Sequence record: NC_019517.1
Direction: 5' to 3' (one strand)
Source of the DNA: Escherichia phage FV3
Length of the DNA: 64,000 bases
Shown here piece by piece: positions 6,869-50,409 of the stretch. The notes beneath the pieces are model-generated. The model searched no databases and had not been told where the DNA came from. It worked only from the letters and a program-made list of their open reading frames with translations. Position 1 is the first letter of the stretch, and the number at the start of each line of letters is the position of its first letter. The translations under genes were made by a program, and so were the position numbers.

Positions 6869-7357
6869 ATGAAACTTGATAAAAATGTTCAACGAAAAGC
6901 TTTCTTGGATATGATCGCATATTCAGAAGGCACAGATAATGGTAGACAACCTACCAATGATCGGGGATACGATGTTATAGTCGGTGGCAAGCTGTTCAGC
7001 GATTACAGCAAGCATCCGGGTGTTTACGTTAAGCTAAATGCTAAACTTACCTCTTCTGCTGCTGGGCGTTACCAGATTTTGGAGAAGTTTGCTAAACACT
7101 ACATGAAACAGTTAGGATTACCAGATTTTGGCCCTGCCAGTCAGGACAAGATTGCGTTGCAACTGATCCGTGAGTGTAAGGCGCTCGATGATATTGATGA
7201 AGGTCGTATTCACCAAGCTATTTATAAATGCCGCAGCCGCTGGGCAAGCTTCCCACCACCGCCAGGGGCTGGAAAGCTGTACAATCAGCGAGCAGAAAGT
7301 ATAGACAAGATGCTGGATATCTTTAAGAAGTCAGGTGGAGTTGTTACGGATGAGTAA
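6869..7357 (+). CDS. endolysin, lambda R-type lytic transglycosylase
   Basis: near-identical blocks to lambda R: QRKAFLDM, SEGTDNGRQ, GYDVIVGG, GRYQ. Confidence 0.9.
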   Translation: MKLDKNVQRKAFLDMIAYSEGTDNGRQPTNDRGYDVIVGGKLFSDYSKHPGVYVKLNAKLTSSAAGRYQILEKFAKHYMKQLGLPDFGPASQDKIALQLIRECKALDDIDEGRIHQAIYKCRSRWASFPPPPGAGKLYNQRAESIDKMLDIFKKSGGVVTDE

Positions 7358-29656: not shown

Positions 29657-29890
29657 ATGAAAGTTAAATTTCTTACAGATTTAGGGTACCCTTCCTTGGT
29701 TGACTGCGTTGGTAAAATTGTGGAAGCAAAACGACTATCTGCAAACGATAATGTTGTCATGGTTAAGGGAAAAGATTTACTATCTGCAGGTGCAGAGTCT
29801 GGCAGGATCTCTCCTGACTATACGTATTACCTGTCTTTAAGTAATCTACCAGAACGAGGCGGCAAAGGCCTTGAAGTTGTGGAGGAGTGA
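29657..29890 (+). CDS. small acidic protein, paralog family A
   Basis: MKVKFL...KGKDLLSAGA...LEVVEE; SD GGAGG. Confidence 0.5.
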   Translation: MKVKFLTDLGYPSLVDCVGKIVEAKRLSANDNVVMVKGKDLLSAGAESGRISPDYTYYLSLSNLPERGGKGLEVVEE

Positions 29891-30414
29891 CAGGTATGCT
29901 GCTAGTTGATTGGAAAGATTTTTATGGCGATAAAGACCCGAAAGCCTTTATATATAAACCTTGGAGATACTCAGAGAGTCAAATTGCTGCAATAAACCTT
30001 ACAGCAAAGCGCCGAAAAATTATCGAAAGTAAATACAGGTACGCTCAGCTAGTGGCTGGTGTTTCTCCACAGGTAGAGAGTTTTGTGCTTAAACTGTACG
30101 AAAAGTTTATGAGTTACGATCTGTCATTCGTGAAGGTGGGTGAGGATTTATCCCCTGGTAACAACGTAACACGTTGGAAAGTTTCATGCGACAAAAAACT
30201 TCCGGTAAGTATTGAGGTGTGTCGATACTGGGGGTATCATGAGTGTGGCTTTTATGACTACCATGATGTAGAAATAAAGCCACGCAATCATCTAAGCGAC
30301 CCAGAAAAAGATTACTTGAAGCATGTGATTCTTTCCATGTTTGGAGGGTATATCACAGAGAAAAATAGCGAAGACAGAATATCCTTTCTTAACAGTTTGA
30401 ACCGGGAGATGTAG
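29887..30414 (+). CDS. hypothetical protein (175 aa)
   Basis: track ORF. Confidence 0.45.
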   Translation: MTGMLLVDWKDFYGDKDPKAFIYKPWRYSESQIAAINLTAKRRKIIESKYRYAQLVAGVSPQVESFVLKLYEKFMSYDLSFVKVGEDLSPGNNVTRWKVSCDKKLPVSIEVCRYWGYHECGFYDYHDVEIKPRNHLSDPEKDYLKHVILSMFGGYITEKNSEDRISFLNSLNREM

Positions 30415-30415
30415 T

Positions 30416-30652
30416 ATGACTATAGACACTGTGCTGGTTTGGTATTGCGCATTGACCTTTCTGACAATGGTTGTTTTAGCAACTCTTTGCATCATATCTT
30501 GTAGAAAAATTAAGTTTGACGACTTTATAACTATAATCACTGCCGCACCTTTTTGGCCTGTTGTTCTCTTCATTGCGGTTATGTGCTTGGTGGATCACTG
30601 TAAAACCGTCAGGAAAATGAAGGAGGCAGATAAGAATGGTAACAGTGACTGA
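30416..30652 (+). CDS. small membrane protein (78 aa)
   Basis: two hydrophobic helices. Confidence 0.45.
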   Translation: MTIDTVLVWYCALTFLTMVVLATLCIISCRKIKFDDFITIITAAPFWPVVLFIAVMCLVDHCKTVRKMKEADKNGNSD

Positions 30653-30854
30653 AACTGTTTATACTGTTCTTAGGGAGATTGCATTCTATACAGACCTTAG
30701 TTCAGTATCTTCATGGGAAAAGAGTGTGTATTTAAAATGGTGCGTGAAATTAGAGGGGACCTTCTAATGTTTCAAGCCATGTTTATTGAAATGCTCTCCG
30801 GAGTATTACTGCTGGTAGCCATTTTGGGTGGTGCGGCGCTAATGTATAATTATC

Positions 30855-31058
30855 TTGAAAAAGGGGACAGTAATGACAAAAAATAAATCCTTAGAACAGG
30901 CTGAAAACCTTCTCCACGAGCTGGTAAAGGAGTGGAAAGTTGAATACTCAGATTTTAATGCAAGAGAGGGGGAAGATTATTGGCCTACGGAGCGCTCAGA
31001 GGGAGAGTGGTATCAAGATTTCATAGAATGGTTATATCAGACGTGCGATGAGGGGTGA
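30855..31058 (+). CDS. hypothetical protein (67 aa)
   Basis: track ORF. Confidence 0.4.
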   Translation: MKKGTVMTKNKSLEQAENLLHELVKEWKVEYSDFNAREGEDYWPTERSEGEWYQDFIEWLYQTCDEG

Positions 31059-31516
31059 CGATGTTTGTTAAATATGTAAAAACGTGCCTCAACAACCTTG
31101 GTAGAGAGCATTGGTACACCTTGCTTGAAAAAGGAGAAATTTTAACAAAATCTGGAAAGATAACTCTGATACCTTTGGATGATAAAGACCCGTCACTACT
31201 TGTCATAGATGATTACGTTACAGGTGTGTCGTACGAGGTCTCTGTGGAGAGGTTAATACGCAGATCTGGAGGGCCTTATGACCGAAGAGAGTATGTTTTC
31301 GATTCTGTTACAGAGAAGGAGGATCCGTCTCTAATGTTTAGGATGGTAATCAGGGATATGAAATCATCTATAAATAGGATTGTAAAGGACATTAAGGAGC
31401 CTTTTAGGGTAAAAGTTAAGAAGTTTTTTGATTCTAAGATTAACATACTCGCCGTTGTGCTAGGCGTAATTCAACTTCTGTTAATTTTGCACTATCTTGA
31501 ACTGTTGTTCAAGTAG
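31055..31516 (+). CDS. hypothetical protein with C-terminal TM helix (153 aa)
   Basis: track ORF. Confidence 0.45.
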   Translation: MTMFVKYVKTCLNNLGREHWYTLLEKGEILTKSGKITLIPLDDKDPSLLVIDDYVTGVSYEVSVERLIRRSGGPYDRREYVFDSVTEKEDPSLMFRMVIRDMKSSINRIVKDIKEPFRVKVKKFFDSKINILAVVLGVIQLLLILHYLELLFK

Positions 31517-31576
31517 TGTGCAACAAGGCACAAAGGATGTGCCATGATTAAATAAACTAAGAAAGAGGTAGAGAGA

Positions 31577-31924
31577 ATGCCAAAGATTAAGTCGATATTA
31601 ATGTGGGCAGCTGTTGTGGCTTTTGTAGGATACTGGACTTGGGAAACTGAATTAAAAGATATCGGGTATACCAGTCTTGAGAGCAAGGCATGCATTGGCA
31701 TAACCGATGCATTCAGGCAAAATGCTATGGATCACGAATGTGTCGATGCAGATATAGATGAGAAACTGTCTAAGGACAAGGATTTTTACCATGGTCATGC
31801 CTTGCTTGATAGTGGTGACACTGTAGAATTCTGGTCGTGGTTCCGTGAAGATGGAACAATAAAGACAGCAGTAAAGATTTCCAACAAAGAGTTAATGCTG
31901 TTGCAGCAGAAGGAGGTGCAATGA
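31577..31924 (+). CDS. hypothetical membrane-anchored protein (115 aa)
   Basis: N-terminal hydrophobic segment. Confidence 0.45.
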   Translation: MPKIKSILMWAAVVAFVGYWTWETELKDIGYTSLESKACIGITDAFRQNAMDHECVDADIDEKLSKDKDFYHGHALLDSGDTVEFWSWFREDGTIKTAVKISNKELMLLQQKEVQ

Positions 31925-32208
31925 TCTGGATATCCTACACTGATGGCACCATGCTGTATACTGCAGGTACTAGGTATGAAGTTCAGGAGGACGATAAAAA
32001 ATTTATCGTAAAAACATTTGACAAGGACGAAAACCTTTTGTTAGAATTGACTTACAAGGTTGGGGAGGTATCTAGCATCCAATTGGATTGCGGTCATAAA
32101 GATAACCCACTCAAGAAACCTGGGGTAGGTAAAGCTTCAGAAGAACGCCTGTCTCGTATTGCAGAAAGCGTTTCTGCACAAAAATCTAAGAAGGGGACTA
32201 GAAAATGA
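31921..32208 (+). CDS. hypothetical protein (95 aa)
   Basis: track ORF. Confidence 0.4.
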   Translation: MIWISYTDGTMLYTAGTRYEVQEDDKKFIVKTFDKDENLLLELTYKVGEVSSIQLDCGHKDNPLKKPGVGKASEERLSRIAESVSAQKSKKGTRK

Positions 32209-32399
32209 AAAACTTACGTTTTAACACTTATTACTACAACACTTTGAATGATTTGTATTATATTATTCGAAGTAAAAGTCCTGAAACAGTCCTATTCTGC
32301 CGCGAACCTTTCAAAGGGGAGGAAGTAGAGTCTGAGATGAATGTTAGCCATATTACCTCTTTGTTGCTCTCAGGTGCAATGGAAGAAGCAATATTCTAA
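32205..32399 (+). CDS. hypothetical protein (64 aa)
   Basis: track ORF. Confidence 0.35.
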   Translation: MKNLRFNTYYYNTLNDLYYIIRSKSPETVLFCREPFKGEEVESEMNVSHITSLLLSGAMEEAIF

Positions 32400-32417
32400 A
32401 CCAGGCGGGAGGGTTTT

Positions 32418-32603
32418 ATGAAGCACTATTGCCTGTTTGGTAGGATGGGTGTAGAGTGTGATTGGGTTTTCTTAAAACTTGTCAGCATCCGAGAGTCAAT
32501 CCCAGAGGAAGAGCAAGAAAGTGAGCTGATGTCATGGATCAGCTATTACGGCAACACTTTCCGGTATGTCAAAATGGAAGGGCTGCCAAGCGAGGATGAT
32601 TGA
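32418..32603 (+). CDS. hypothetical protein (61 aa)
   Basis: track ORF. Confidence 0.35.
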   Translation: MKHYCLFGRMGVECDWVFLKLVSIRESIPEEEQESELMSWISYYGNTFRYVKMEGLPSEDD

Positions 32604-32698
32604 TTATGATTGCATCAATATTAACGTTTATGGGTGGCGTGGCGGTCGGATTCATTATTTGCCTGTTTATAGTGATTATGTCTATGCGAGGCTGACTT

Positions 32699-32983
32699 AT
32701 GAAACTGTTCGAGTGGTTTAAAAAGTTTAAATACCGGGCCGTTGCTGTATCGAAATGGACTGTCCGCTGGGTGGACAATGATGGAACACAAATTCCAGGT
32801 GATCAGGATACCGGATACTGGGTTATGATGGAGAACGGATTTGGGAAAAGGAAGTTTAAATGTGTTGGTGCTCCTACCCTTTTAAATGTTAGAAGTGTGC
32901 CAGGGTACAGCACTCTGGTTGTTTGGGAGCTATCCGGTGTTCCTCCTGCCAATGTGCAATACTTGCCAAATTCAGAAAAATAA
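32699..32983 (+). CDS. hypothetical protein (94 aa)
   Basis: track ORF. Confidence 0.4.
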   Translation: MKLFEWFKKFKYRAVAVSKWTVRWVDNDGTQIPGDQDTGYWVMMENGFGKRKFKCVGAPTLLNVRSVPGYSTLVVWELSGVPPANVQYLPNSEK

Positions 32984-32995
32984 AAGGAGAAAATA

Positions 32996-33280
32996 ATGAG
33001 CAATGGTATTAGCAACAATGCTGCAGAGTTTAAAGTGATCTGTAAAGGCACTTATTGGATAGTGAAACAGAAGGTGTACCTATTCGGTTTCATACCGTTT
33101 TGGCAGAGATTTTGCTGGGGAGCTAACGAGCTTAAGAGATACGCCACCAAGGCTATGGCACTTATTGGTATAGCTGAATACATTGCTGCCAGGGACAGAG
33201 AGGGGAAAACTTGTTACTACACTGCTGACGAGATTCGTAACAGTGTTTACGTTCCACAACCGCCCGATGGAGACCGCTGA
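32996..33280 (+). CDS. hypothetical protein (94 aa)
   Basis: track ORF. Confidence 0.4.
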   Translation: MSNGISNNAAEFKVICKGTYWIVKQKVYLFGFIPFWQRFCWGANELKRYATKAMALIGIAEYIAARDREGKTCYYTADEIRNSVYVPQPPDGDR

Positions 33281-33504
33281 TGAAAGTGAAAGTTTTAGAT
33301 TCAAACTTCTATATTGGTCAAGAGCCTTTAGTTGGAAAAGTGTTTACCGCTATCCCTAACGAAGATTATCCTGACCTTTTAAAAATAAAAGGGGAAGATC
33401 TTATTGCCGCTGGCGCGTCTCAGGAATGCTTTGACAGTCAGTGGGCCTACAACTTTGCCCTAGGGGAGGATGTGGAGATAGTGGAGGACGATTATGAAGG
33501 TTAA
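33280..33504 (+). CDS. small acidic protein, paralog family A
   Basis: MKVKVLDSN...GEDLIAAGA...VEIVEDDYEG; net charge about -11 in 74 aa. Confidence 0.5.
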   Translation: MKVKVLDSNFYIGQEPLVGKVFTAIPNEDYPDLLKIKGEDLIAAGASQECFDSQWAYNFALGEDVEIVEDDYEG

Positions 33505-33748
33505 AATTCTTGACTCTAACGTCTACTTGGGACAATCATTCCTGAAGGGAAAGGTAGTACCTGCTGTATACTTCGAAGGGTTGCCGTGGGATGATCCTGT
33601 GCGGCAAAATCACAGCTATGTAGGCCACAATGTGGTGTTCATTTTGGGATCAGACCTGATCGCGGCTGGTGCTCCGGAATATTATTTCGGAGAGGACTCG
33701 TATTATGCCTTTGGGGTAGGGTCAGATGCAGATATTTTAGAGCCGTGA
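33494..33748 (+). CDS. small acidic protein, paralog family A
   Basis: MKVKILDSN...GSDLIAAGA; adjacent tandem paralog. Confidence 0.5.
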   Translation: MKVKILDSNVYLGQSFLKGKVVPAVYFEGLPWDDPVRQNHSYVGHNVVFILGSDLIAAGAPEYYFGEDSYYAFGVGSDADILEP

Positions 33749-34159
33749 TTGGGGACTGTTGTGAAAAATAAACTGTTCAAAGTTACAATGAAAATTCGCG
33801 GAGCTTGGAGCGTAAAGCAAGGGCGTATCCCGGAATTTGAGAAAGACTTCTACGTAGTCTCCACCTCTGAAGAGGCTGCATGCTGGCAGGCTGGCTATGC
33901 CTATGCAAGAACTTGGTACGAAGGGTACCAAACTGGGGGCTATGACGGAGAAATTGTCAGTAAGGGTGTGGAAGAAATTAATGTGTTGACAAGTGAAAAA
34001 GTTTTTGTTATAGTGCATCCTGATTCCAGAGTGAAGCATTACTGGAATGCCAGAACAAAAACCTGGACACCATTTGCAGATTCTGCTACACCACTTTTAA
34101 ACCAGAAAGCTCTTGACTCTGCCCCGAGCTACGGGGTTGTTGAAGAAAAAATAAGCTGA
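33749..34159 (+). CDS. hypothetical protein, paralog family B
   Basis: shares VHPDSRVKHYWNARTKTWTP-like block with ORF 35963. Confidence 0.45.
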   Translation: MGTVVKNKLFKVTMKIRGAWSVKQGRIPEFEKDFYVVSTSEEAACWQAGYAYARTWYEGYQTGGYDGEIVSKGVEEINVLTSEKVFVIVHPDSRVKHYWNARTKTWTPFADSATPLLNQKALDSAPSYGVVEEKIS

Positions 34160-34176
34160 AATAGTGGGGTACTTAC

Positions 34177-34467
34177 ATGATGGATTTAGTTTTGGATACT
34201 GATAACACCGAATCGTTTAAAAAAGATGGTGTAATAAGCATGGACCAATCCTGCCATGCCAAGATTGACTCAAAATGGACCTACAAGTTTGACGGTGAGA
34301 TCTTCGCAAATGATGAGAAGGTTGTGGATGCTGTAGCCATTTTAAACGCTTTAGGGTATGACCCTGTGAACTCATTGATCAAGGATCCTGTTGAGTTTGC
34401 AGAGTATGTTCGTAAAATGGCAGATCTTGCAGTAGATATTTTAAAAACTATCGACGACAAGCTGTAA
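34177..34467 (+). CDS. hypothetical protein (96 aa)
   Basis: track ORF. Confidence 0.4.
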   Translation: MMDLVLDTDNTESFKKDGVISMDQSCHAKIDSKWTYKFDGEIFANDEKVVDAVAILNALGYDPVNSLIKDPVEFAEYVRKMADLAVDILKTIDDKL

Positions 34468-34473
34468 AAACTG

Positions 34474-34502
34474 TTGACACAACATTTGATCTTTAGTATC
34501 AT
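34474..34502 (+). promoter_or_regulatory. sigma70-like promoter TTGACA-N17-TATCAT
   Basis: consensus hexamers upstream of the HPF homolog. Confidence 0.55.
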
Positions 34503-34549
34503 TATTTCCAAAGAGGGTTTGGTTCCCTCTTCTTTAAAAGGAGCACGTT

Positions 34550-34867
34550 ATGCAGATTGAAATTACTGGCAACGTAGAGATCACTGAAGGTATGGTGTCT
34601 TTCATTTCCCACAAAATGTCCAAACTGGAGCGTTTGCACCCATCTGCCAACTATGCACGTGTGAGTGTAAAAGTTGAAAATGATCACCAGGAAGTTATGG
34701 CTTTTATTTTTGACAATTCTGGGAAAGAAGTTATCGCCAAAGCTAAAGGTAGCGATGCTTACGAGGCAACTGACCGTATGGTGGATGTTGCAGCACGCCA
34801 GTTGGCTAAATGCGGTGGAAAGAAAGGTAAGGGAAAAGGTAAAGTAAAGATTGACTTTTGGGATTGA
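34550..34867 (+). CDS. hpf: ribosome hibernation promoting factor / RaiA-family homolog
   Basis: MQIEITGNVEIT...KLE...VKVE...AKAKGSDAYEATDRMVDVAARQLAK aligns block-by-block with E. coli HPF; Lys/Gly-rich tail. Confidence 0.8.
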   Translation: MQIEITGNVEITEGMVSFISHKMSKLERLHPSANYARVSVKVENDHQEVMAFIFDNSGKEVIAKAKGSDAYEATDRMVDVAARQLAKCGGKKGKGKGKVKIDFWD

Positions 34868-35004
34868 GGTGCTACAATGAGTATGATTAAGAAATTAGTC
34901 CCAAATGTAGAGATTGCATGCTTTGAAATTATGTTTGCAATCGCAGTTGTAGTTAATGTGTTAGGTTACGACTATTAATATCAAATAATTGAGGAGACCT
35001 CTAA

Positions 35005-35274
35005 ATGAAAATTAAATTATTCAAAACTGAGCTGGCAGACAAAAACTGCGGACTGGTTGAAGGCATGATCGTTGAAGCACAACCAGTGGACTACATGAAG
35101 GTGGTTCGTGATGCTCTGGGTGAAGGTTTTGATCTGATGGAGCCAGCTCTGCGAGAAGATGTCATCGAGATGGCTAAAAAGCACACACCTGAAGGCTTGG
35201 TAGTGTTTGTTGCTCCAGGTAACGGAGAAGAGTTGATTGTAACTCCGGATGTGTATGAGGTTGTAGAGGAGTAA
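35005..35274 (+). CDS. small acidic protein, paralog family A-like
   Basis: MKIKLF...YEVVEE. Confidence 0.45.
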   Translation: MKIKLFKTELADKNCGLVEGMIVEAQPVDYMKVVRDALGEGFDLMEPALREDVIEMAKKHTPEGLVVFVAPGNGEELIVTPDVYEVVEE

Positions 35275-35362
35275 TCTTGGGTTAGCCATACTTCCTCGAC
35301 AAGAAAGGTTTGTAATTATTTGTGGGAAAGGAATCCCCATCTCTTACCAGAGGTGATACTGT

Positions 35363-35626
35363 ATGATTGTTTATTTTAAAACTTCAGGTGGATACCCTGA
35401 TTCTCAAAGCTTGATTGGAAAAACGTGCACAGCATACTCGCCTCTTGATGATGAGGTAAGTGATACCCTACGAAATATGTATCGGATTGATCCACAAGAA
35501 GCTTTTGATCAGAACCTTGTATTTGTCAAGGGCTCAGACATGAAGTCTTTGGGGGCATTTCCTGAAGCAGATGATAATGCTGTTTATTCGTTTATGACCC
35601 CTTTTGAAGCTATGGTTGTTGGGTGA
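35363..35626 (+). CDS. small acidic protein, paralog family A-like
   Basis: VFVKGSDMKSLGA block. Confidence 0.45.
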   Translation: MIVYFKTSGGYPDSQSLIGKTCTAYSPLDDEVSDTLRNMYRIDPQEAFDQNLVFVKGSDMKSLGAFPEADDNAVYSFMTPFEAMVVG

Positions 35627-35963
35627 GAATATGAAAGTACGCTTTATTGGTGAAACAATTCCTGTGCATCTCCGGTCGCCTGAGGATTCTGCAGATCTTG
35701 CATCTCAAAAGGCCAGAGGGTATGATAAGAAAGTAATCTCAACCGATGTAGAGCTTGAGGCTACCAGTCTGCCTGACCCTGCTGCATTCTTTAATCATTA
35801 TGGATACTATTTCAGCAATCTGATGAATATCGGTGAGCTTGTGTTTATTAGTGGTGGAGAAATAGTTAGCAAGCTTGGCGGCGATCCGGATGTCTTTCAT
35901 GAAACCTGCCCTTTTGCATTTGTGGTAGGTTCAGATGTGGAAGTTATTGAGGAGGTGCGGTAA
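35604..35963 (+). CDS. small acidic protein, paralog family A-like
   Basis: MKVRFIG...VEVIEEVR. Confidence 0.45.
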   Translation: MKLWLLGENMKVRFIGETIPVHLRSPEDSADLASQKARGYDKKVISTDVELEATSLPDPAAFFNHYGYYFSNLMNIGELVFISGGEIVSKLGGDPDVFHETCPFAFVVGSDVEVIEEVR

Positions 35964-36358
35964 TGGTAAGTCTATACCGTGTTGAGTATAGCTCAGATAC
36001 TGTATACAACGTAAGAAGCAAAGATCGTAGCGACAGAGTGCAAGAAATGTATGTTCTTGCCGACAGTCCGTTATCTGCAGCGTTTAAGGCAGGAGCTCTT
36101 GCATCTCGTTGGAAATTCGAGGGTGGATCTTTCTATGAAGAAACTCTTGAAGATTCTGTTGTTATTTCTTCTGTAGAGGTTTCAACTGACTACGAAGGGA
36201 AAAAGTTCGTAATGCGGCACCCACACAGCAACATTGCGTACTACTGGGATGTTCTGAACAACGAGTGGACTCCAGATCTTCAGAAGGCCACTGTTCTGAC
36301 TCCGTTCTTGGCAGATAAGTTCCCACCAGAAGGTAATTTATCTGCACTGTTTCAGTAA
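35963..36358 (+). CDS. hypothetical protein, paralog family B
   Basis: VMRHPHSNIAYYWDVLNNEWTP block shared with ORF 33749. Confidence 0.45.
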   Translation: MVSLYRVEYSSDTVYNVRSKDRSDRVQEMYVLADSPLSAAFKAGALASRWKFEGGSFYEETLEDSVVISSVEVSTDYEGKKFVMRHPHSNIAYYWDVLNNEWTPDLQKATVLTPFLADKFPPEGNLSALFQ

Positions 36359-36376
36359 TTTTATTCTACACAGGTG

Positions 36377-36405
36377 TTGACAACACCAACCCTGTGTGCA
36401 ATAAT
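36377..36405 (+). promoter_or_regulatory. sigma70-like promoter TTGACA-N17-AATAAT
   Basis: consensus hexamers. Confidence 0.5.
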
Positions 36406-36434
36406 ACCTTCATCTTAACAAGACAGGAGACTGA

Positions 36435-36695
36435 TTGATGAAGATTAAATTGAAAAACCTTGAAATGGCAGAGGTTCAGGAAGGTGTTGATTTCCGCTCT
36501 AAAGATGGCGACATCTTAGAGGCGAATATCCCGACCTATAAGTTGATTAAAGGTTTTGGCAACGTTCCTGAAGAGGATATTACAGACATTCTTATGATGT
36601 TGATCCTTGACGGGACCGTGTTTGTAGGTGAAGGTGAGAACGCTATTGCAATCCCAGGCCATTTTTATGAAGTAGTTGACGAAGAGGTGCTGTAA
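36435..36695 (+). CDS. small acidic protein, paralog family A-like
   Basis: MMKIKLKN...FYEVVDEEVL. Confidence 0.45.
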   Translation: MMKIKLKNLEMAEVQEGVDFRSKDGDILEANIPTYKLIKGFGNVPEEDITDILMMLILDGTVFVGEGENAIAIPGHFYEVVDEEVL

Positions 36696-37046
36696 ATGAA
36701 AGTAGAGATCACAGGTTTTGATATGAATGTGGTTCCGGAAGATATTTTAGCTAAACTTCCGGAAGGTTTTGGTAACGGTGTTGTGGTGGATGCTGTCCCT
36801 CCTACCAAAGACATTCTGCTGCAGTATGGTGTAGCAGAGGAAGATGTCGATAAAGTTCTTACAATGATGGCAATAGACCGTGTTGTCGTTGTTAAAGGTC
36901 TTGAAGGTTTTGATGACGATCCTCTGATTATTCGTGGTGATGACTATCGCATCATCGACAACGAAGGCCAAGAGTTCTACGAACCTTCTGCTGAAGATGT
37001 TCTTAACTTACTACTGGAAGCAGGCACCGAAGAGGAGGAAGAATAA
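36696..37046 (+). CDS. small acidic protein, paralog family A-like
   Basis: MKVEITG...poly-Glu C-terminus. Confidence 0.45.
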   Translation: MKVEITGFDMNVVPEDILAKLPEGFGNGVVVDAVPPTKDILLQYGVAEEDVDKVLTMMAIDRVVVVKGLEGFDDDPLIIRGDDYRIIDNEGQEFYEPSAEDVLNLLLEAGTEEEEE

Positions 37047-37375
37047 TGAAAATTGATCCGTTACTAAAGGCTCGTGCAGAAAAAGCATACACTATCAAGC
37101 TGACCTCTCTGGTCCCTACTTGTCATCCGGATGTAGGTTGGCCTGAAGGCCTGGTAGAGGGGACTGTAACAGCTGCATACCTTCCTAACATCAAATACCT
37201 CATGGAGATCTTGGAGATGGATGAGGAAACGGCAGAACAGTTCCAGTTAGACATGAAGCAAAGTGGGACTCTGGTTATTCACGGGTGGTATAATACTAAA
37301 GATGCAGAAGATCCCCTGGTAACTTCTAATCTGGCATATGAAATCTTAGGACCTTTGAACTTGGGGGAAGACTAA
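37046..37375 (+). CDS. small acidic protein (109 aa)
   Basis: track ORF; ATGA overlaps. Confidence 0.4.
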   Translation: MKIDPLLKARAEKAYTIKLTSLVPTCHPDVGWPEGLVEGTVTAAYLPNIKYLMEILEMDEETAEQFQLDMKQSGTLVIHGWYNTKDAEDPLVTSNLAYEILGPLNLGED

Positions 37376-37662
37376 TGAAAGGTTTGGTTAAGATCAAGAT
37401 TAAAGACACCAAGGGAGAACTCAGCCATTTTGGAATTAACGATGGTGACGAGCTGATCGCCCACCTGCCTACCAAGGAAGTTGTAAGCAAAGCTGTTGCC
37501 GGAGAAGAAGATGCAATGCAGGCTGCAGGTGTGGATGAAAACTATGTAGCAATGTGTATGTGCCGAGATCAGGTTGTTCTGTATAAAGCGTATCGACCAA
37601 ATGGAGCACCTGAGTGGCTTGTTTTCCGACCCGAAGGGTATGAAATTTTAGAGACGCTATGA
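37375..37662 (+). CDS. small acidic protein (95 aa)
   Basis: track ORF. Confidence 0.4.
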   Translation: MKGLVKIKIKDTKGELSHFGINDGDELIAHLPTKEVVSKAVAGEEDAMQAAGVDENYVAMCMCRDQVVLYKAYRPNGAPEWLVFRPEGYEILETL

Positions 37663-37751
37663 TAAATCTTGCCAAGGTTGCAACGGCACTGTTAATTATT
37701 TGCTGGATAGTGACCTTGGCACTATGTCTTGTATTTCATTAAGGGGGCTGT

Positions 37752-38015
37752 ATGAACATCCTGATGTGGGTTGTGGCAGTGGCGTTTGTTGCGTGCCTCT
37801 CTTGTTGGGTTGCTGTGAGGATTTCTATAGCCACTCTTCGGAAATTAGGGTTCTCAGAGTGGGATATTAATATCCTCTCTTTTCGCAATGAGACGATCTC
37901 AGCTGCCTTACTGTGCAAGAAGTTCAAGTGGAAACCTTGGGAGGTCATGAGCTATCTAAGAACAGGGGATATTCCTGAGAGATTTAAAAAAGTTCTTGAC
38001 GGCGAAGATAAATGA
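37752..38015 (+). CDS. small membrane protein (87 aa)
   Basis: N-terminal TM helix. Confidence 0.4.
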   Translation: MNILMWVVAVAFVACLSCWVAVRISIATLRKLGFSEWDINILSFRNETISAALLCKKFKWKPWEVMSYLRTGDIPERFKKVLDGEDK

Positions 38016-38170
38016 TAGTATAGTTACTAACAAGAGGTGAGGAATGACTGATTTTACTGAAGCTTTAATGATGGCCTTATCCGTTTTAGCGCTATCTGTG
38101 TGTTTTGGGGCGTTATTCACATCTCTGGTTAAAGTTTTACATACCATATTATCACCCAAGGAGCACAGTA

Positions 38171-38422
38171 ATGACGAAGATTGACTTAAATGCTGGAGAC
38201 CATGTTGTTGTCAAATGCATCGGAGATTATCTTGGATTCACAATCGGCAATACTTACGAGGCGGTAGTGGCGAAGGTTTACCATGATAAAGTCCTCAGCC
38301 TTGTATTTGACTGTGATGATGACGGAGATGACCGCTACGTCTGTGAGGTGCTGGCTCGTGACGATAGTGAAGACCAGAAATTCCTGGTTACCGAACTGAA
38401 CGGTATTTTTGTAGAACGTTAA
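38171..38422 (+). CDS. hypothetical acidic protein (83 aa)
   Basis: internal ATG of track ORF 38105..38422. Confidence 0.4.
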   Translation: MTKIDLNAGDHVVVKCIGDYLGFTIGNTYEAVVAKVYHDKVLSLVFDCDDDGDDRYVCEVLARDDSEDQKFLVTELNGIFVER

Positions 38423-38450
38423 TTTAAAACAATATAAGGAGACTCTTACT

Positions 38451-38756
38451 ATGGCTAAATCTAAAGTTGAACTGTTCACCTCTCTTCCTTCTGACACTGC
38501 AGAGCGTGATCGCCTCCGTAAAACAATTGAAGAGCTGGTAGAACTTCAGCTTCAGATTAAAGATCTGAAAGACGCTATCAAGGATATTATTCTTGTCGAG
38601 AAACAGGATCACCTGTATTCTCCTAAGTTTATCAAGTCCTTGGTGGCTACCGAATTCGATATCCGCTACGAGGCTGAAAAACGTCGAGCTAAAATCGAAG
38701 AAGAGGTTGAGCACATGTCTGAAGCAGACATTCTGTTCAAACGCTCTGCAGAATAA
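38451..38756 (+). CDS. hypothetical coiled-coil protein (101 aa)
   Basis: SD AAGGAGA; terminator follows. Confidence 0.45.
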   Translation: MAKSKVELFTSLPSDTAERDRLRKTIEELVELQLQIKDLKDAIKDIILVEKQDHLYSPKFIKSLVATEFDIRYEAEKRRAKIEEEVEHMSEADILFKRSAE

Positions 38757-38761
38757 CGACA

Positions 38762-38788
38762 AAGAGGGGTCTTGGCCCCTCTTTTTAC
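38762..38788 (+). terminator. rho-independent terminator
   Basis: GAGGGGTCTTGGCCCCTC hairpin followed by TTTTTACT. Confidence 0.65.
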
Positions 38789-38809
38789 TATCTATGAAGG
38801 AGATCAGAA

Positions 38810-39136
38810 ATGCTAATGCCGATTACTGTAAAAGAGCTAAATGAACGTGATGCAGGGGGCCTATGGCCTGCGCGGAAAATACGCTGCGTTTATATGAAAG
38901 AGAATCTTGAGCACCTTGATCAACAGATTGCGGTGGGGGATATTTTCGAAGTTTTCTATTCTAATCGCCGCAACTGGGAAACCATTCAACCTTCAGGTTT
39001 TGTTCTTGCCAAACTTGATACCGGAGAAGTGATTATCCCTGGGCTGGATATTGTCTTCGAAATTATCCAGGAGTGGGATCCTGATAAGATTAAATATGAA
39101 GAGTTATTCGGTGAAGGTATTATCAAGCCTGTGTGA
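38810..39136 (+). CDS. hypothetical protein (108 aa)
   Basis: track ORF. Confidence 0.4.
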   Translation: MLMPITVKELNERDAGGLWPARKIRCVYMKENLEHLDQQIAVGDIFEVFYSNRRNWETIQPSGFVLAKLDTGEVIIPGLDIVFEIIQEWDPDKIKYEELFGEGIIKPV

Positions 39137-39444
39137 GGTGGATTATGTCTACAACGACAGCTAAATACTCCTATATGCCAGCAACCTCCGCAGAAATAGA
39201 CTTCAGTTTCGATGTGTTTCCATTGTTTGAGATAGTCCTGGCATACCCAACAACTATATCTACTCCTGAATCACTTGTGCCTATTAAGTTGCAGAACGCT
39301 ATGCATTCCATGCACTACAACAATAAATGCAGGCACAGATGGTGTCAGGACGAGGAAAAAGATCTAGATAGTTTGAAAGATTTTGACAATCACCTTTTGA
39401 CCCCTTTCAGCTACTCTAACCTGGACAAGCCCTCATGGGTATAG
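39133..39444 (+). CDS. hypothetical protein (103 aa)
   Basis: track ORF. Confidence 0.4.
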   Translation: MRWIMSTTTAKYSYMPATSAEIDFSFDVFPLFEIVLAYPTTISTPESLVPIKLQNAMHSMHYNNKCRHRWCQDEEKDLDSLKDFDNHLLTPFSYSNLDKPSWV

Positions 39445-39468
39445 CAAAATATCAAATTTAAGGCACCT

Positions 39469-39497
39469 AGGACGCTCTGTGGCGTCCTTTTCTTTAT
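39469..39497 (+). terminator. rho-independent terminator
   Basis: AGGACGC-TCTGT-GGCGTCC followed by TTTTCTTT. Confidence 0.65.
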
Positions 39498-39657
39498 CTG
39501 GTGCACGATTGCATACCTTGGGTAGTTAATCTCATTACAGAGCGTTTAATAGCGGCCTGTAAACAGATCTCTATTTCGAGCGTAGCGAGAACGCACGTCC
39601 GTTTTGACCCAAATCACCATACGCTCGGATTTTAACCAAACCCTCGCGGCGTTTCTG

Positions 39658-39686
39658 TTGACACATTACCGCTCCTGTGATAGTAT
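39658..39686 (+). promoter_or_regulatory. sigma70-like promoter TTGACA-N17-TAGTAT
   Basis: consensus hexamers. Confidence 0.5.
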
Positions 39687-39706
39687 CCTCACATAGTTTG
39701 TAGAAT

Positions 39707-39808
39707 ATGAAATACGCAATGAAAACATTATCTGAGGTTTTAGTGGTGATCCTGATGATCATTACGTCCATAGCAGTTGTTGCCGGAATACTCACGGGTG
39801 GAACATGA
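39707..39808 (+). CDS. hydrophobic micro-protein (33 aa)
   Basis: MKYAMKTLSEVLVVILMIITSIAVVAGILTGGT; ATGA overlap with next ORF. Confidence 0.35.
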   Translation: MKYAMKTLSEVLVVILMIITSIAVVAGILTGGT

Positions 39809-39993
39809 CCAACACACATGCACCTAAAGAGACATCTGAAGAAGCGACTATAGAGAAAAACTTCAATTCTGAGGATTCTTTATCTCCGTCTCAGGTAGAT
39901 CCTGAGGCTGATGACCTGACGTGGGAAGACATCGTAGACATCTGGTTCTCTATCATGCCTGAGCACGAAGAGTTCAGAGGTGGGAGACTATGA
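39805..39993 (+). CDS. hypothetical acidic protein (62 aa)
   Basis: track ORF. Confidence 0.4.
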   Translation: MTNTHAPKETSEEATIEKNFNSEDSLSPSQVDPEADDLTWEDIVDIWFSIMPEHEEFRGGRL

Positions 39994-40112
39994 AGCACCG
40001 AGCCCACATAAGTTTATCATGCTAAAGCATGGCCTGAAGAGGCAAACGTGCATAATTCCAGTGCATTGGAACGTATAACCCTGTTCACACTCTCATTTCC
40101 AGAGGAGATTTT

Positions 40113-40328
40113 ATGAAGATAGAAATATTTGGTGGAGCTGACAACACTCGTGGCCTGATTTACCTTGAATTCGATGAATCATACCTGCCAGAGGTGTTAA
40201 ATATAGACTCTGTTGCTGAGGCTTTGGGAGTAAACCCTAAAGAACTCCACTCTTGTGCTGAGATCGATGGTTGGGAAGAGACCATGAACATTGATTTCAG
40301 TGAAGTAGAGGATGAACCGCTGGACTGA
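40113..40328 (+). CDS. small acidic protein, paralog family A-like
   Basis: MKIEIFGG...acidic C-terminus. Confidence 0.45.
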   Translation: MKIEIFGGADNTRGLIYLEFDESYLPEVLNIDSVAEALGVNPKELHSCAEIDGWEETMNIDFSEVEDEPLD

Positions 40329-40508
40329 CACACAATTAGCTGCCCGGCTAAAGTGCTGGAAGCACCTATAACACATCTTTCAACTAAATTTCCTACCACC
40401 ACAATCACTTACCTCCCACACATGACTGTTTGCTTGTTTAGTGAGCAGTCATTCCTTGACATTCTTGCCTATCCTGATAAAATTAAGTTCTTCTCTTTTC
40501 TTTTACCG

Positions 40509-40535
40509 AGTAATTCGGGTTTTCTGTTCTCTTCG
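40509..40535 (+). terminator. possible terminator closing the plus-strand block
   Basis: hairpin CCGAGTAATTCGG followed by T-rich tract (approximate). Confidence 0.35.
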
Positions 40536-42559
40536 GTTTGAAGGGGTATGGAGATACACCTGAGTGAACAGGGTGAACAACCGAACCTTTAGCTATGGCA
40601 TTAGCATGGCGAAGCGGACGGGTGACGAAAGAGGGGCCGGAGGACACCAGTCACTGCCATATGGTATATGGGTGATAACCTGAAGAGTCTGAATAAGTGT
40701 TTAAGTACCAGTCAGAGGAAAAGGTGAATGGTAGCCGAAGGGGGAGGGGGGTTTCTTGTATCTTTAATTTGTATACTTTATATACACTTGTAAACCAATT
40801 CAATTAGAATATGGATACCACACAAAGTGGATAGAGGCAAATATTCCCTATTAAACTTGAATTATTTATAGAAAATACCACAACACTGCTTAAGTCTTTG
40901 ATTTTACACACAAATATTACAAATATCCTGCCTCTATATTTAACATACCTGTAACATATTCCATACTCTCCCTGATTGATCAATTCCCCAACTACATCCC
41001 CATATTTTCCCTTCCTGTACTACCCCTGCCCCGCCGGGAGTCCCGTCATATCTGGCTTTCCAGCAAATATCACACCCACAAATATCATTGCCTGAAGAGG
41101 GTTTCATCCCATAATACCTGCCTTACCCGAAGAGCGCTTCATACACCACGTAAATTTTTTAATTGACCTGCAATTTTCCTGCAGACCCACCCCCTGCCCA
41201 GCCGGAGAGGTTGGCTTTTCCCACACAGGCCTGAAGAGTCAGCCAGAAATATCTGAAGGGGGTCCAGTTCTACCACGATTTTGACCTGACCTACAGGAGC
41301 GCTGCCAGGCGGACGAAATGGGAATACTTCTCATTCTTATAACAATTCTCAAATATCGGGGCAGTGAGGCAAATTAATAGGCGAGGCCGTTCACACAGTG
41401 GCACAACATTTGCAAGCTATTTTGCGGGGGTGAATGAGAATACCTATCATTGTGAGAATAGTTATCATTACGGGCAATTTAACATAATACCCATTATGCG
41501 CACCACTGGCGATACATACAGGGATTGATAACATGGGTTACTGTTTACGCATATAACAATTGTATTTCTTATTATTTGTGGGGGATATAGTTAGCAACCA
41601 ATAGATTAGTTATTAACCTGCGGACTTCTGACCGTCTAGACGTCCAAACGCCCACACCACAAGGATTATACATACACTCCTGCATGTAAACAGGGCCGCA
41701 AAAATGCTACCATACCAGTTTGTAAATTTTCCATGCAGCACTTGACAAAGAGGAGAAAAACTTGTCTGACACACTGGACACCTTATACACCTTATACACT
41801 TTCGATACAATAACGATTGTTATTATTTCATGTTTCACTGTTCACGTATAGATTGTTCCTGCATAGACTGTTTACGCCTGGATAGTTTACACCTTGACAG
41901 TTTACGCAGATATGATAAGCCATGACATTCGTTTGCATAGTTGCCTTATTGTTACAGGTAAAACAATTACATTGTTAACTATTTCTTATCTTTCTCTTAG
42001 TCATCTAATGATTCCAGTCAGTATAGTTATGTACAGTAAACATTAGACGACTAAATATTTCTCTGATTATAGTAACCTATCGTGACAATTTCTAACTGTT
42101 TACGAAAAATGTTGACACCTGGGCAGGTTTATGTTATGCAGTTTGTACGAATAATTATTTTGTACAGGTATTGACTATTCCGTTATTCTGTGGTTGGAAT
42201 AAATACTTTGCAGGCTATAGAATGGTGATCGTACGTGGATTCTGAGATCTGTCGGCTATAGTTACACCCGATTTTTCACGTAGGACACGCTTTTTGGTTT
42301 GTGTAAGTGTATGACTTATAAGGGTTTTTAATTGTTGACAGTATACTGAAGATGTGCATCAGGTTAAATTTTGTGCAATAGCTGCATTACGTGCAATTTT
42401 GGGAGAGAAAACGGGTAAAAATAGCACCGCTACCACACAATGAAAGGTTATGCAATAGCTATTTTACATGTATATTTGTACAGTGTGCGGGATTGATGGC
42501 TCGTCAATTATTCCACTTGTCAGGTAGGGCCGTTTATGGTAGGAAAAGAGCAGACAAAA
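40536..42559. other. gene-free repeat-rich region between convergent blocks; candidate origin, regulatory or ncRNA locus
   Basis: no credible ORF over 2 kb; motif CTGTTTACG in at least 5 copies (41540-42100), CCTGAAGAG x3, GAGAAYRNTTATCATT x2. Confidence 0.5.
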
Positions 42560-43193: not shown

Positions 43194-43533
43194 GGCGTTT
43201 TCCTCTCTTCTGGTTGTTGTGTGGGCACTTTTGCCCCTTCAAGGTAAATGCTACCCCACCACCCGGCAGATGTCAACGGTTTTTATAGTTTTTTATATAA
43301 CGGGCACCCCTGGTGATTGTCTCCCCCCGTCGCCAGGTGCCGCCCGTGAAACAAGTATAACAAAAAACAGGACCATTGCAAGCCCTGTTTATTATCTTAA
43401 AACCAGGTGCCAACCGTTTCCAATAGATCACTGACTATCAGGACAATACTGATCAGCACATACCTAACCATAAAGGGAAAGATCGCCAACATTGCCGCCA
43501 CGATCCCCATGGTGATAATTATCTTTCTCATGA

Positions 43534-43818
43534 TTAACGGGTCACGTAAGTTTTCCCGTTTACTGTTATCGGCAGATCCTCCAGGTCTGGATCTTCTTTA
43601 AGGTCGCGAGCAAGCTCACCGCACCGGATGCCCTCGAATCCGTAGTACTCTGTTGTGCCGTCCTGGAAAGTTTTTGCGGCAAGGCATAACCGATAAGTAA
43701 CACCGATTTGATTGACGGCATGGATATCAGTTAGATCTACCTCTTTTGCCAGCTCTTTAGCCATTACAGGCGCATTAAGTCCAATAACCAGGGCAACCAC
43801 TGCGATCATCTTTTTCAT
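43534..43818 (-). CDS. small secreted protein with signal peptide (94 aa)
   Basis: N-terminal MKKMIAVVALVIGLNAPVMA signal. Confidence 0.5.
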   Translation of the reverse strand: MKKMIAVVALVIGLNAPVMAKELAKEVDLTDIHAVNQIGVTYRLCLAAKTFQDGTTEYYGFEGIRCGELARDLKEDPDLEDLPITVNGKTYVTR

Positions 43819-43907
43819 GTTGTCTATCCTCTTTCTGCTGCGTTTAAGGCGGTTACCGCCGCCTGTTTATGCTTTGTTAGTTAATGGGGCGTACGGTATA
43901 GATTAAA

Positions 43908-44132
43908 CTATGCTGTACGCTCAACTATAACAACGGCTTGAGGGATCTCACCTTCCACCACTATCAAGGCTTTTTTCTGCGTGATAGATATCTTTACCCG
44001 CTTCAGCGTGGCGGTAAAATCTTTCATTTCGTCACGTGGTGTTTTAGTGCAATACCAGATCTCAGGCTTACCTATTTGCAAGCCGCGTAAAAATTCCGTT
44101 TTGCCTGTTTTGTTCGTGATCATTTGTTTCAC
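43908..44132 (-). CDS. hypothetical protein (74 aa)
   Basis: track ORF. Confidence 0.4.
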   Translation of the reverse strand: MKQMITNKTGKTEFLRGLQIGKPEIWYCTKTPRDEMKDFTATLKRVKISITQKKALIVVEGEIPQAVVIVERTA

Positions 44133-44310
44133 CTTACCCGATACCGTGGGAAGATAGGATCATGTTAGCCATAGTTGCAACCACTCCAACCGATAATGCC
44201 ATGCCAACTACTACAACCGTGAAAATTTTTTCTAACATGATTCCACCCTCATTAATGGGCGTTGCCTTATTGCCCCGCCCTATGTCGTACACTTTTCTTC
44301 TGATCCTCTG

Positions 44311-46461: not shown

Positions 46462-46581
46462 TCAGTTACTTACAGCGATAAAATACATCCCTACGCCTAA
46501 CAATATTTCAAGGGCGATGATCTCAAGCCATACCATAACACGGCGCGCCTTATCGGTGCGGGGCTTATCCTTGGGTGTCAT
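46462..46581 (-). CDS. hydrophobic micro-protein (about 39 aa)
   Basis: minus-strand ATG after SD GGAGG; MTPKDKPRTDKARRVMVWLEIIALEILLGVGMYFIAVSN. Confidence 0.3.
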   Translation of the reverse strand: MTPKDKPRTDKARRVMVWLEIIALEILLGVGMYFIAVSN

Positions 46582-46800: not shown

Positions 46801-47205
46801 TTATTTAAACGGCTGGCCCACATATTTTCTATTCCTCTCAAATAGGCGATCCGCCTCAGTTAAACAAATCTCATGGGCGTGATCTCTGGTTTTAGCTTCA
46901 TCGAAAACCTGTTGTGCAAGGCTGCAACGTAGGGAGACTGGAAGATCGCTATAATAGGCGTTAACAAACGTTTGAGCGTCGTACAGGTCTGAAAATACTT
47001 TACCCTTTCTATTATTCCCCTTGTCAACAATTGCAAGGATAACCAATACAATAGTTGCAACCACCCCCAGGAAAATAGATATAATAAACCATAAAAAGGC
47101 GGATCTCCCCATCTTGCCAGCGATCCAGGCGTTAAACAAGGCAACCAATATAGCCAAAATAATAAATTCCATTCTATGTACCTCTTTTACAGTTCTGATC
47201 AACAA
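46801..47205 (-). CDS. membrane protein (134 aa)
   Basis: two N-terminal TM helices. Confidence 0.45.
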   Translation of the reverse strand: MLIRTVKEVHRMEFIILAILVALFNAWIAGKMGRSAFLWFIISIFLGVVATIVLVILAIVDKGNNRKGKVFSDLYDAQTFVNAYYSDLPVSLRCSLAQQVFDEAKTRDHAHEICLTEADRLFERNRKYVGQPFK

Positions 47206-50176: not shown

Positions 50177-50409
50177 GGTGTTTTCTCCTTTTTTGTGTTT
50201 TGGGAAGTTTTCCCGTTTACGTGTTTAAGTATACCGATTTAGGTTAGCTTGTCAATTAAAAATTTAAGAAAAATTTTGCAAAACTGTTGGCGCTACTCAT
50301 TAACATTTGCGCCAGGATGTAACCGACAACGCAAACGATAATAGTTACCTTTGTGTATTGGCGTGTAGTGCTCATCTTAAAGCCCCCTTTTTCGCTTAGT
50401 TGAGACTAG

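Follow-up and report, generated by a model that had tools for sequence, protein, structure and literature searches.

Small single-pass inner-membrane regulators of E. coli, such as AcrZ, MgrB, MgtS, PmrR, KdpF, and CydX, are proteins of 25-50 amino acids (aa) with one transmembrane (TM) helix, a few flanking charges, and no enzymatic domain. Small membrane-anchored peptides are also encoded by phages; LysM, a 37-aa single-gene lysis peptide of a single-stranded RNA (ssRNA) phage, inhibits the envelope or cell-division machinery. Here, we describe eight short open reading frames (ORFs), c1 to c8, each encoding one hydrophobic peptide, in a 64,000-nt stretch of the Escherichia phage FV3 genome (sequence record NC_019517.1; this whole stretch is referred to below as the window). 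A precedent for a small single-TM phage protein that regulates a larger membrane protein is Gp11 of the Staphylococcus aureus phage PhiNM1, which inhibits the envelope or cell-division machinery (PMC11237401), and hydrophobic microproteins dominate the products of enterobacterial small ORFs (smORFs; PMC11188072). The FV3 peptides resemble AcrZ-type proteins in size, in their single predicted TM helix with few flanking charges, in the lack of an enzymatic domain, and in their expected action, the binding of a larger membrane protein, but they have no sequence relation to these proteins, are phage-encoded, and lie in polycistronic arrays. With Gp11 and the ssRNA-phage lysis peptides they share small size, phage origin, and presumed membrane anchoring; there is no homology, and, in contrast to those peptides, several of the FV3 genes are dispensable, being absent from viable relatives.

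The closest described locus is that of phage rV5. Positions 30000-40500 of the window match 120 phage records at 80-97.5% identity, all of them Vequintavirus (rV5-like E. coli myophages), mislabelled 'Campylobacter' phage entries included. In rV5, two gene arrays converge on a stretch with 'no observable ORFs'; the transcription units that bear the micro-genes also carry DNA-metabolism genes, and a late-type promoter motif is found upstream of genes 27-66, i.e., outside these units (PMC3606486). Sigma-70-like promoters are annotated in the rV5 record and were also seen in a scan of the window. Table S3 of the rV5 paper, for which TM helices were predicted with TMHMM and Phobius, lists ORF131, ORF145, ORF156, ORF181, and ORF193 (39, 33, 46, 39, and 39 aa, respectively) as 'membrane protein, 1 TMD', i.e., with one transmembrane domain (PMC3606486). 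These five are direct orthologs of c1, c3, c5, c7, and c8, or the same genes, having the same length and position and a near-identical sequence; in the rV5 record (L004), the corresponding slots are filled by gp126, gp140, gp151, gp176, and gp188. Unlike them, c2 (bas50_0160 and bas53_0158 of the BASEL phages) and c6 (BASEL phages, JES2013, and Murica) are annotated only in later genomes. An earlier sequence-only reading of the window had called all eight frames unannotated, because its ORF track was cut off at 60 aa; seven of the eight are annotated coding sequences in public records, and the finding is to that extent ordinary and largely in the public record already. The eight frames are as follows (coordinates count the stop codon).

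c1, 30767..30886, plus strand: 39 aa, MFQAMFIEMLSGVLLLVAILGGAALMYNYLEKGDSNDKK; one predicted TM helix and a short charged tail; ortholog of rV5 ORF131
c2, 32606..32695, plus strand: 29 aa, MIASILTFMGGVAVGFIICLFIVIMSMRG; mobile cassette
c3, 34877..34978, plus strand: 33 aa, MSMIKKLVPNVEIACFEIMFAIAVVVNVLGYDY; ortholog of rV5 ORF145
c4, 37659..37742, plus strand: 27 aa, MINLAKVATALLIICWIVTLALCLVFH
c5, 38044..38184, plus strand: 46 aa, MTDFTEALMMALSVLALSVCFGALFTSLVKVLHTILSPKEHSNDED; one predicted TM helix and an acidic tail; ortholog of rV5 ORF156
c6, 39707..39808, plus strand: 33 aa, MKYAMKTLSEVLVVILMIITSIAVVAGILTGGT; alternatively 29 aa from the ATG at 39719
c7, 46462..46581, minus strand: 39 aa, MTPKDKPRTDKARRVMVWLEIIALEILLGVGMYFIAVSN; basic N-terminus and a predicted TM helix; ortholog of rV5 ORF181
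c8, 50256..50375, minus strand: 39 aa, MSTTRQYTKVTIIVCVVGYILAQMLMSSANSFAKFFLNF; ortholog of rV5 ORF193

Coding evidence for the eight micro-ORFs

All eight frames are present in the window, four exactly at the coordinates first proposed for them and the others 1-7 nt away. The peptides are small, as claimed, though the true range is 27-46 rather than 27-48 aa. Every frame starts with ATG; a good Shine-Dalgarno (SD) sequence, which had been ascribed to all of them, precedes c1, c2, c3, c5, c7, and c8, while that of c4 is weak and c6 has none. The description of the products as single hydrophobic helices held: there is one hydrophobic stretch per peptide, with a Kyte-Doolittle 19-residue maximum (KD19; classical threshold 1.6) of 2.0-3.1. 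Summed biological-scale values of the best 19-mer ranged from -4.1 to +2.1 across the peptides, and AlphaFold2 returned a single helix for c5 (residues 2-36) and c7 (residues 3-38), with predicted local distance difference test (pLDDT) scores of 86 and 87, respectively.

Conservation was assessed in 19 related genomes or contigs (L-numbered loci; 82-97% identity), by projecting their BLAST alignments onto window coordinates for each ORF. Wherever a locus is present and was scored without an indel flag, the frame is open, and frame-breaking indels are absent from the candidates in all 19 relatives. Pooled over the eight frames, the ratio of nonsynonymous to synonymous diversity (pN/pS) was 0.23 in the proposed frame, and shifting the frame raised it to 0.87 and 1.14. 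At codon positions 1, 2, and 3, the alignments had 49, 27, and 90 variable columns, respectively (chi-square ~37, p ~1e-8). Individual pN/pS values were 0.06 (c1), 0.35 (c2), 0.93 (c3), 0.38 (c4), 0.22 (c5), 0.30 (c6), 0.25 (c7), and 0.20 (c8); for long genes of the same region, the median pS was 0.23 and the median pN 0.021. Spurious controls were provided by 84 small ORFs (25-59 aa), most of which lie within conserved long genes. Comparable hydrophobicity was found in nine of them, and the only one both hydrophobic and at least 90% intact was c5 itself.

We conclude that the eight frames are more than chance hydrophobic ORFs: they exist, are conserved, are under in-frame purifying selection, and encode hydrophobic, helical peptides. 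ORF conservation, in-frame purifying selection, and translational coupling support their reading as genuine small genes; the core of the earlier interpretation is thus supported, and the label 'unannotated' does not hold. That they are genes of membrane micro-proteins we consider highly probable; our confidence in any specific target of the peptides is much lower.

The arrangement of the individual genes is compact. The c1 start codon overlaps the preceding stop (TAATG), with GAGGGG 8 nt upstream, and its 3' end overlaps the following gene by 14 nt. Of 18 relatives in which the c1 locus is covered, 16 were scored intact; the remaining two, L010 and L014, were indel-flagged, yet both read as open 39-codon frames. 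The c1 start is ambiguous, since most relatives have GTG at this position and the BASEL phages start at an ATG four codons downstream. A strong SD (AGAGGTGAGGA) precedes c5, with a promoter-like site (37996..38024) immediately upstream, and the frame (locus tag FV3_00147) is intact in 19/19 relatives. Upstream of c6, a terminator-like hairpin (39469..39488) is followed by a promoter-like site (39658..39686); the 3' end of c6 overlaps the following gene (ATGA). The frame is intact in 18/19 relatives; the nineteenth, L009, has an in-frame deletion of 3 nt and a frame of only 30 aa. On the minus strand, c7 (SD AGGAGG...GGGGGAG) is intact in 13/13 relatives, and its homolog in L022 has a 1-aa insertion in the N-terminal tail and an invariant TM segment; c8, with AAGGGGG 7 nt upstream, is intact in 8/8, its locus being replaced by other sequence in several relatives.

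Two of these genes share a further feature. A 16-nt motif, ACAGTAATGACRAARA, occurs in the window only twice (30867-30882 and 38165-38180; 0.01 copies expected), each copy coinciding exactly with the overlap between c1 or c5 and the start of its downstream gene; both downstream proteins begin with MTK. A junction or translation-initiation module common to the two genes is suggested by this, or else an ancient duplication.

Matches to PHROG families extend over the full profile length for c1 (phrog_15251, 39/39 positions), c3 (phrog_15151, 33/33), c5 (phrog_16755, 46/46), c7 (phrog_13629, 39/39), and c8 (phrog_16391, 39/39), while phrog_34195 covers residues 5-33 of c6; E-values for these six were 1e-19 to 1e-35. 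The c2 match was weak and partial (E = 5e-4). All matched families carry the label 'unknown function'; 'putative membrane protein' appears for c3 in phage I29 and for c8 in phage A51.2. A Pfam profile search returned nothing significant for any of the eight peptides. A tblastn search of the phage collection with the concatenated peptides found only Vequintavirus records (124 records, 779 places), i.e., no cross-genus homologs at that sensitivity, and a word-indexed protein search with the same concatenate gave no match, though exact look-ups place the peptides in that collection. A phmmer search with c5 against 1.84 billion representatives recovered only its own cluster and one spurious partial match to an 843-aa protein.

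A contrary explanation takes some of the frames, or even all of them, for chance ORFs of intergenic spacers, with hydrophobicity supplied by base composition and conservation by translation initiation regions, promoters, or 5' leaders. It is most plausible for c3. This frame begins 9 nt past a phage hpf/raiA gene, has a conserved SD (GAGGTG) 5 nt upstream, and is open in 19/19 relatives (in L013 the first codon is ATA and the next ATG is at codon 3); the exact peptide is annotated as FV3_00137. Its body (34890-34978) is almost invariant at all codon positions in the 19 relatives, including the 82%-identical L009. The c3 pS of 0.04 lies below all 225 windows of equal length taken inside long genes as a null for synonymous diversity, and its pN/pS is uninformative because the synonymous sites are nearly frozen. 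A promoter-like site with an extended -10 element (34851..34878, TTGACT-16-TACAAT with TG) overlaps the c3 start; it is conserved, with TATAAT as the -10 element of the divergent L009, and the c3 body could thus have a second role as a 5' leader. Against this, RNA folding of the c3 region showed nothing out of the ordinary on either strand (z -0.86 and, antisense, -1.69). The lack of codon-position bias in c3 is due to its hardly varying at all, and its coding status therefore rests on the SD, the open frame, and hydrophobicity.

The upstream neighbor of c3 (34550-34867, plus strand) is a phage ribosome hibernation factor of the HPF/RaiA family (PF02482, E = 1.8e-12). In the phage collection, this gene is found only in Vequintavirus records and in one Salmonella chromosomal record at 42% identity. 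Since hpf itself is Vequintavirus-restricted, a search for a TM micro-ORF following hpf in other phage genera had nothing to draw on, and a scan of viral contigs with hpf gave two loci only.

The c4 frame is the opposite of c3 in its rate of change. Its ATG overlaps the stop codon of the preceding gene (ATGA); the frame ends 9 nt before the following gene and has a weak SD in the window (GAGA) and GAGG in relatives. It evolves fast (pN 0.10, 57% of columns variable), and the distribution of variable columns over the codon positions (16/9/22) is marginal when taken alone, which would suit a chance ORF. The frame is nevertheless intact in 19/19 relatives. In L009, where 40 of 84 nt (48%) differ, frame length, hydrophobicity, and K6 are kept, and the stop-start overlap is kept as TGATG; in a simulation, 40 random substitutions left an intact hydrophobic frame in 0.4% of trials (0.004). 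Annotation of c4 was absent from all eight annotated genomes inspected, there was no PHROG match, and neither the window peptide nor three relatives' variants were found by exact look-up in a collection of 15 billion proteins. No other candidate is absent from every annotation and database checked, and c4, too, is conserved.

Several further points weigh against reading the frames as functional membrane-protein genes. T-rich frames readily yield hydrophobic peptides, and composition-driven hydrophobicity of intergenic smORFs is documented (PMC11188072). Variable columns in c3 (5/3/6 by codon position) show no bias, and c6 lacks an SD in the window, GGAG being present in most relatives. We found no Vequintavirus transcriptome, ribosome profiling, peptide mass spectrometry, or toxicity screen in the literature, and the mass spectrometry reported for rV5 covered virions only (PMC3606486). 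No homolog of known function was found in the PHROG, Pfam, tblastn, word-indexed, or phmmer searches, and the translation, membrane insertion, and function of the peptides are what we infer. On the other side, chance ORFs fit poorly with the pooled in-frame selection and the codon-position pattern, both missing from the shifted frames, and with the lack of frame-breaking indels, the persistence of c4, the end of c2 homology at the ORF ends (see below), and the behavior of the spurious controls. We therefore regard chance ORFs as an improbable explanation.

The c2 gene as a mobile cassette

Evidence of another kind comes from c2. This frame is intact in all 11 relatives that carry it, while the locus is missing in seven and uncovered in one. 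The relatives with c2 have a direct repeat of 10 nt, GCGAGGCTGA, on either side of it, with no mismatch between the copies; of the window's two copies, the upstream one (GCGAGGATGA) departs from this at one position and the downstream one is GCGAGGCTGA. Among the c2-minus genomes, five were read across the junction (L002, L005, L010, L016, and L017), and each retains exactly one copy; L002 and L005 are the two closest relatives of the window. The repeat consists of the last codons of c2 and its stop, and it contains the SD of the next gene.

Among the candidates, c2 alone matches E. coli genomes: only its ~100 nt are found in E. coli chromosomes, in 10 of 5426 complete genomes, at 80-91% identity. 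The only phage groups matched by these ~100 nt are Vequintavirus and mEpimmI (mEp021), the latter being the group to which the c2-bearing E. coli prophages belong. Homology to the prophages stops at the ORF boundaries. From the repeat-flanked presence and absence and from the confinement of the homology to the ORF, we conclude that c2 is mobile and under selection.

In the prophages, the c2-like ORF lies after the holin-lysozyme-Rz genes and a gene for a 180-aa HExxH protein, and before the small terminase gene. There it heads a tandem array in which single-helix ORFs (20-47 aa) follow closely on one another, and in some genomes it is the first unit. Across seven genomes, the array has 4-11 units belonging to about 12 partly paralogous families (grouped by eye); the genomes differ in which complete units they possess, the differences falling at ORF boundaries. 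In public annotations, the array ORFs are mostly absent or give way to longer frames, with which the micro-ORF reading is at odds, and the ORFs go unmentioned in the paper describing the mEpimmI group. The arrays are located as follows.

L026, 6006-6957: mEpimmI-type array
L027, 5006-5745: mEpimmI-type array
L028, 2120-2944: mEpimmI-type array
L029, 705-1771: mEpimmI-type array
L030, 747-1484: mEpimmI-type array
L031, 747-1066: mEpimmI-type array
L032, 1183-1832: mEpimmI-type array

These observations hint at a wider pool of exchangeable micro-genes. As a ~100-nt cassette, c2 moves between the two phage groups, the virulent Vequintaviruses and the temperate mEpimmI phages, probably through recombination at the 10-nt SD-stop junction repeat. 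We put forward only tentatively, as less probable than not, that c2 is one unit of an undescribed mobile pool of micro-gene cassettes and that it crossed from an mEpimmI array into virulent Vequintaviruses. If the array is a diversifying library of membrane-acting peptides, serving, e.g., to exclude rival phages or to interfere with host defenses, it would represent a new kind of phage accessory locus, and the scattered micro-genes of the window would be its virulent-phage counterpart.

Modular gene shuffling in phage hyperplastic regions is known from the PeSL cassettes of T4-type phages and from lambdoid boundary sequences. The likeness lies in the shuffling of modules at short conserved boundaries: c2 is gained or lost between 10-nt repeats, and whole micro-ORFs of the mEpimmI array are present or absent as units. 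In contrast to PeSL cassettes, c2 is a single ~100-nt gene whose repeat consists of an SD and a stop (GCGAGGCTGA) rather than a promoter stem-loop, and its exchange, unlike either kind of shuffling, spans the virulent/temperate divide.

Possible roles of the peptides

Because no homolog of known function was found, the mode of action can be argued by analogy alone. Holin or antiholin, superinfection exclusion factor, and modulator of host membrane proteins, the roles first suggested for the peptides, are generic options, of which holin is the least favored; for superinfection exclusion of the T4 Imm/Sp type, there was no match to any annotated family. By analogy with the AcrZ-type proteins and with small phage membrane proteins, the most likely role would be that of accessory inner-membrane modulators. 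Each gene would encode essentially one alpha-helical TM segment with a few flanking charged residues; it is an accessory gene within the dense, mutually convergent arrays of small non-structural genes, between which lies a non-coding spacer. The peptides would be translated from polycistronic transcripts of these arrays, made from sigma-70-type promoters, either from their own SD or by stop-start coupling (TAATG, ATGA), and would insert into the E. coli inner membrane. According to the positive-inside rule, the flanking charges predict an N-in/C-out orientation for c3, c4, c6, c7, and c8 and the reverse for c1, c2, and c5. Once inserted, the peptides would most likely act as small modulators, by binding a larger membrane protein of the host or the phage and inhibiting or re-tuning it, or by a mild disturbance of the membrane, in the service of host take-over, exclusion of competing phages, or evasion of defense. 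The micro-genes are individually dispensable, and they are gained, lost, and exchanged one by one.

A role of one or more of the peptides in the lysis machinery, as a holin, a pinholin-like protein, an antiholin, or a holin partner, is possible but unlikely. Identification of the holin of rV5-like phages has not gone beyond two published guesses, both of which lie near candidates: rV5 ORF129, a 'putative holin' (30416..30652 in the window; 78 aa, 2 TMD), is two genes upstream of c1, and BASEL bas50_0114, also a 'putative holin' (46804..47172, minus strand; 123 aa), is two genes upstream of c7. In mEpimmI prophages, moreover, the c2-like ORF follows the holin-lysozyme-Rz cassette with one gene between. 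Yet neither the candidates nor the two putative holins match any holin family in Pfam or PHROGs, and the endolysin gene at 6869..7357, whose product is homologous to lambda lysozyme (1AM7, E = 1.5e-48), is separated from the nearest candidate, c1, by 23 kb. Typical holins (~60-150 aa) have either 2-4 TMDs with a charged C-terminal domain or a single TMD with a large periplasmic domain; characterized holins are larger than the 27-46-aa candidates, which have one TMD and almost no soluble domain, a short charged tail being present only in c1 and c5. Like lambda S105/S107, phage 21 S68, and T4 T/RI, the candidates are membrane peptides of lytic phages, and two of them lie near guessed holin genes; they differ in being much smaller, in not lying beside the endolysin gene, and in matching no holin family. 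The absence of c2 and c8 from many viable relatives is also a poor fit with an essential lysis function.

The conserved synonymous sites of c3, c2, and c7, whose pS values are at or below the 3rd percentile of the null windows, would find an explanation if the peptides were membrane poisons of the type I toxin kind (Hok, TisB, Ibs, Ldr), held in check by overlapping antisense RNAs. Type I toxins are small, with a single hydrophobic helix and a basic N-terminus; the candidates resemble them (including Hok, TisB, IbsC, LdrD, and ShoB) in size, in the single helix, and in basic N-termini, and weak antisense -35/-10-like matches (9/12) lie inside c2, c3, c4, and c5. Promoter-like matches in the whole scan, however, numbered 36 versus a shuffle expectation of 26.3 +/- 4.9, which is not clearly above it, and the antisense fold of c3 is unexceptional (z -1.69). 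No antisense RNA partner was detected, and there is no Rfam match in the window on either strand. Most candidates are embedded in operons and translationally coupled, rather than being stand-alone mRNAs with long structured leaders, and the low diversity of c2 is equally explained by recent spread of the cassette. We consider a type I toxin nature very unlikely and favor accessory modulators of the inner membrane.

Neighboring genes and the place of the micro-genes in Vequintavirus biology

Two further small genes, both missing from the earlier list, were found on the minus strand.

c9, 43397..43531, minus strand: 44 aa, MRKIIITMGIVAAMLAIFPFMVRYVLISIVLIVSDLLETVGTWF; hydrophobic (KD19 2.56)
c10, 44134..44238, minus strand: 34 aa, MLEKIFTVVVVGMALSVGVVATMANMILSSHGIG; SD GAGGG

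The c9 peptide (FV3_00157) matches phrog_16005 at 44/44 positions and has homologs in L021 and L022. The frame is intact in 4/4 covering relatives, with a weaker coding signal (pN/pS 0.62). It probably corresponds to rV5 ORF170, judged by size and label (44 aa, '1 TMD' in Table S3; PMC3606486). The c10 peptide (FV3_00160; phrog_14631, 34/34) belongs to a 90%-identity cluster that includes the phi92-like phages VEcB, JohannJBalmer, and PaulScherrer, and a homolog is recognizable in the distant contig L024 (8816..8938). It lies within the 43.3-45.2 kb stretch common to phi92-like phages: positions 43312-45155 are 85-90% identical to phi92-like (Justusliebigvirus-type) and other ~150-kb coliphages while the flanks do not match, pointing to a module exchanged between phage subfamilies. 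Judged by the sequence searches, the tested peptides are orphans restricted to Vequintavirus, apart from c10, shared with phi92-like phages, and c2, shared with mEpimmI coliphages. Among the ten peptides, the only links are weak, composition-level scores (z 4.6-4.9 for c3/c6 and c5/c7), which we rejected as evidence of a common origin.

Upstream of c7, two minus-strand ORFs overlap, a hydrophobic 60-aa frame at 46565-46747 and the frame of the annotated rV5 ORF182 at 46602-46841. The former is intact in 12/13 relatives and the latter in only 5/13; substitution patterns favor neither. The public annotation may have the wrong frame here.

Nowhere in the 29.5-51.5 kb region is conservation higher than in the stretch 40492-40742, where 1.3% of columns vary (mean, 26%). 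This stretch belongs to the 'non-coding' box that separates the two convergent arrays in rV5, and a strong promoter-like site (40456..40483) closely precedes it. It contains no tRNA, Rfam match, or conserved ORF, and its fold is unremarkable (z -1.27); a tRNA search of the whole window also found none. The stretch could be an uncharacterised RNA or DNA site.

Several proteins of 70-120 aa encoded in the plus-strand array begin with MK(V/I)K(V/I/L/F), as judged from translations only, and resemble a tandemly expanded family of paralogs.

29657-29890, plus strand: MK(V/I)K(V/I/L/F) protein
33280-33748, plus strand: MK(V/I)K(V/I/L/F) protein
35005-35274, plus strand: MK(V/I)K(V/I/L/F) protein
35631-35963, plus strand: MK(V/I)K(V/I/L/F) protein
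36435-37046, plus strand: MK(V/I)K(V/I/L/F) protein
40113-40328, plus strand: MK(V/I)K(V/I/L/F) protein

Small hydrophobic ORFs are common in phage accessory regions. What the present analysis adds is quantitative evidence of coding selection for the eight genes and the two unlisted ones, the mobility of c2 together with the related, poorly annotated array in temperate phages, and c4 as a conserved 27-aa gene overlooked by the gene callers and databases checked; the unusual nucleotide-level conservation of c3 is a modest addition of the same kind. The ten peptides are defined candidates for host-takeover and anti-defense screens of Vequintavirus accessory genes, from which standard 60-aa cutoffs would drop them.

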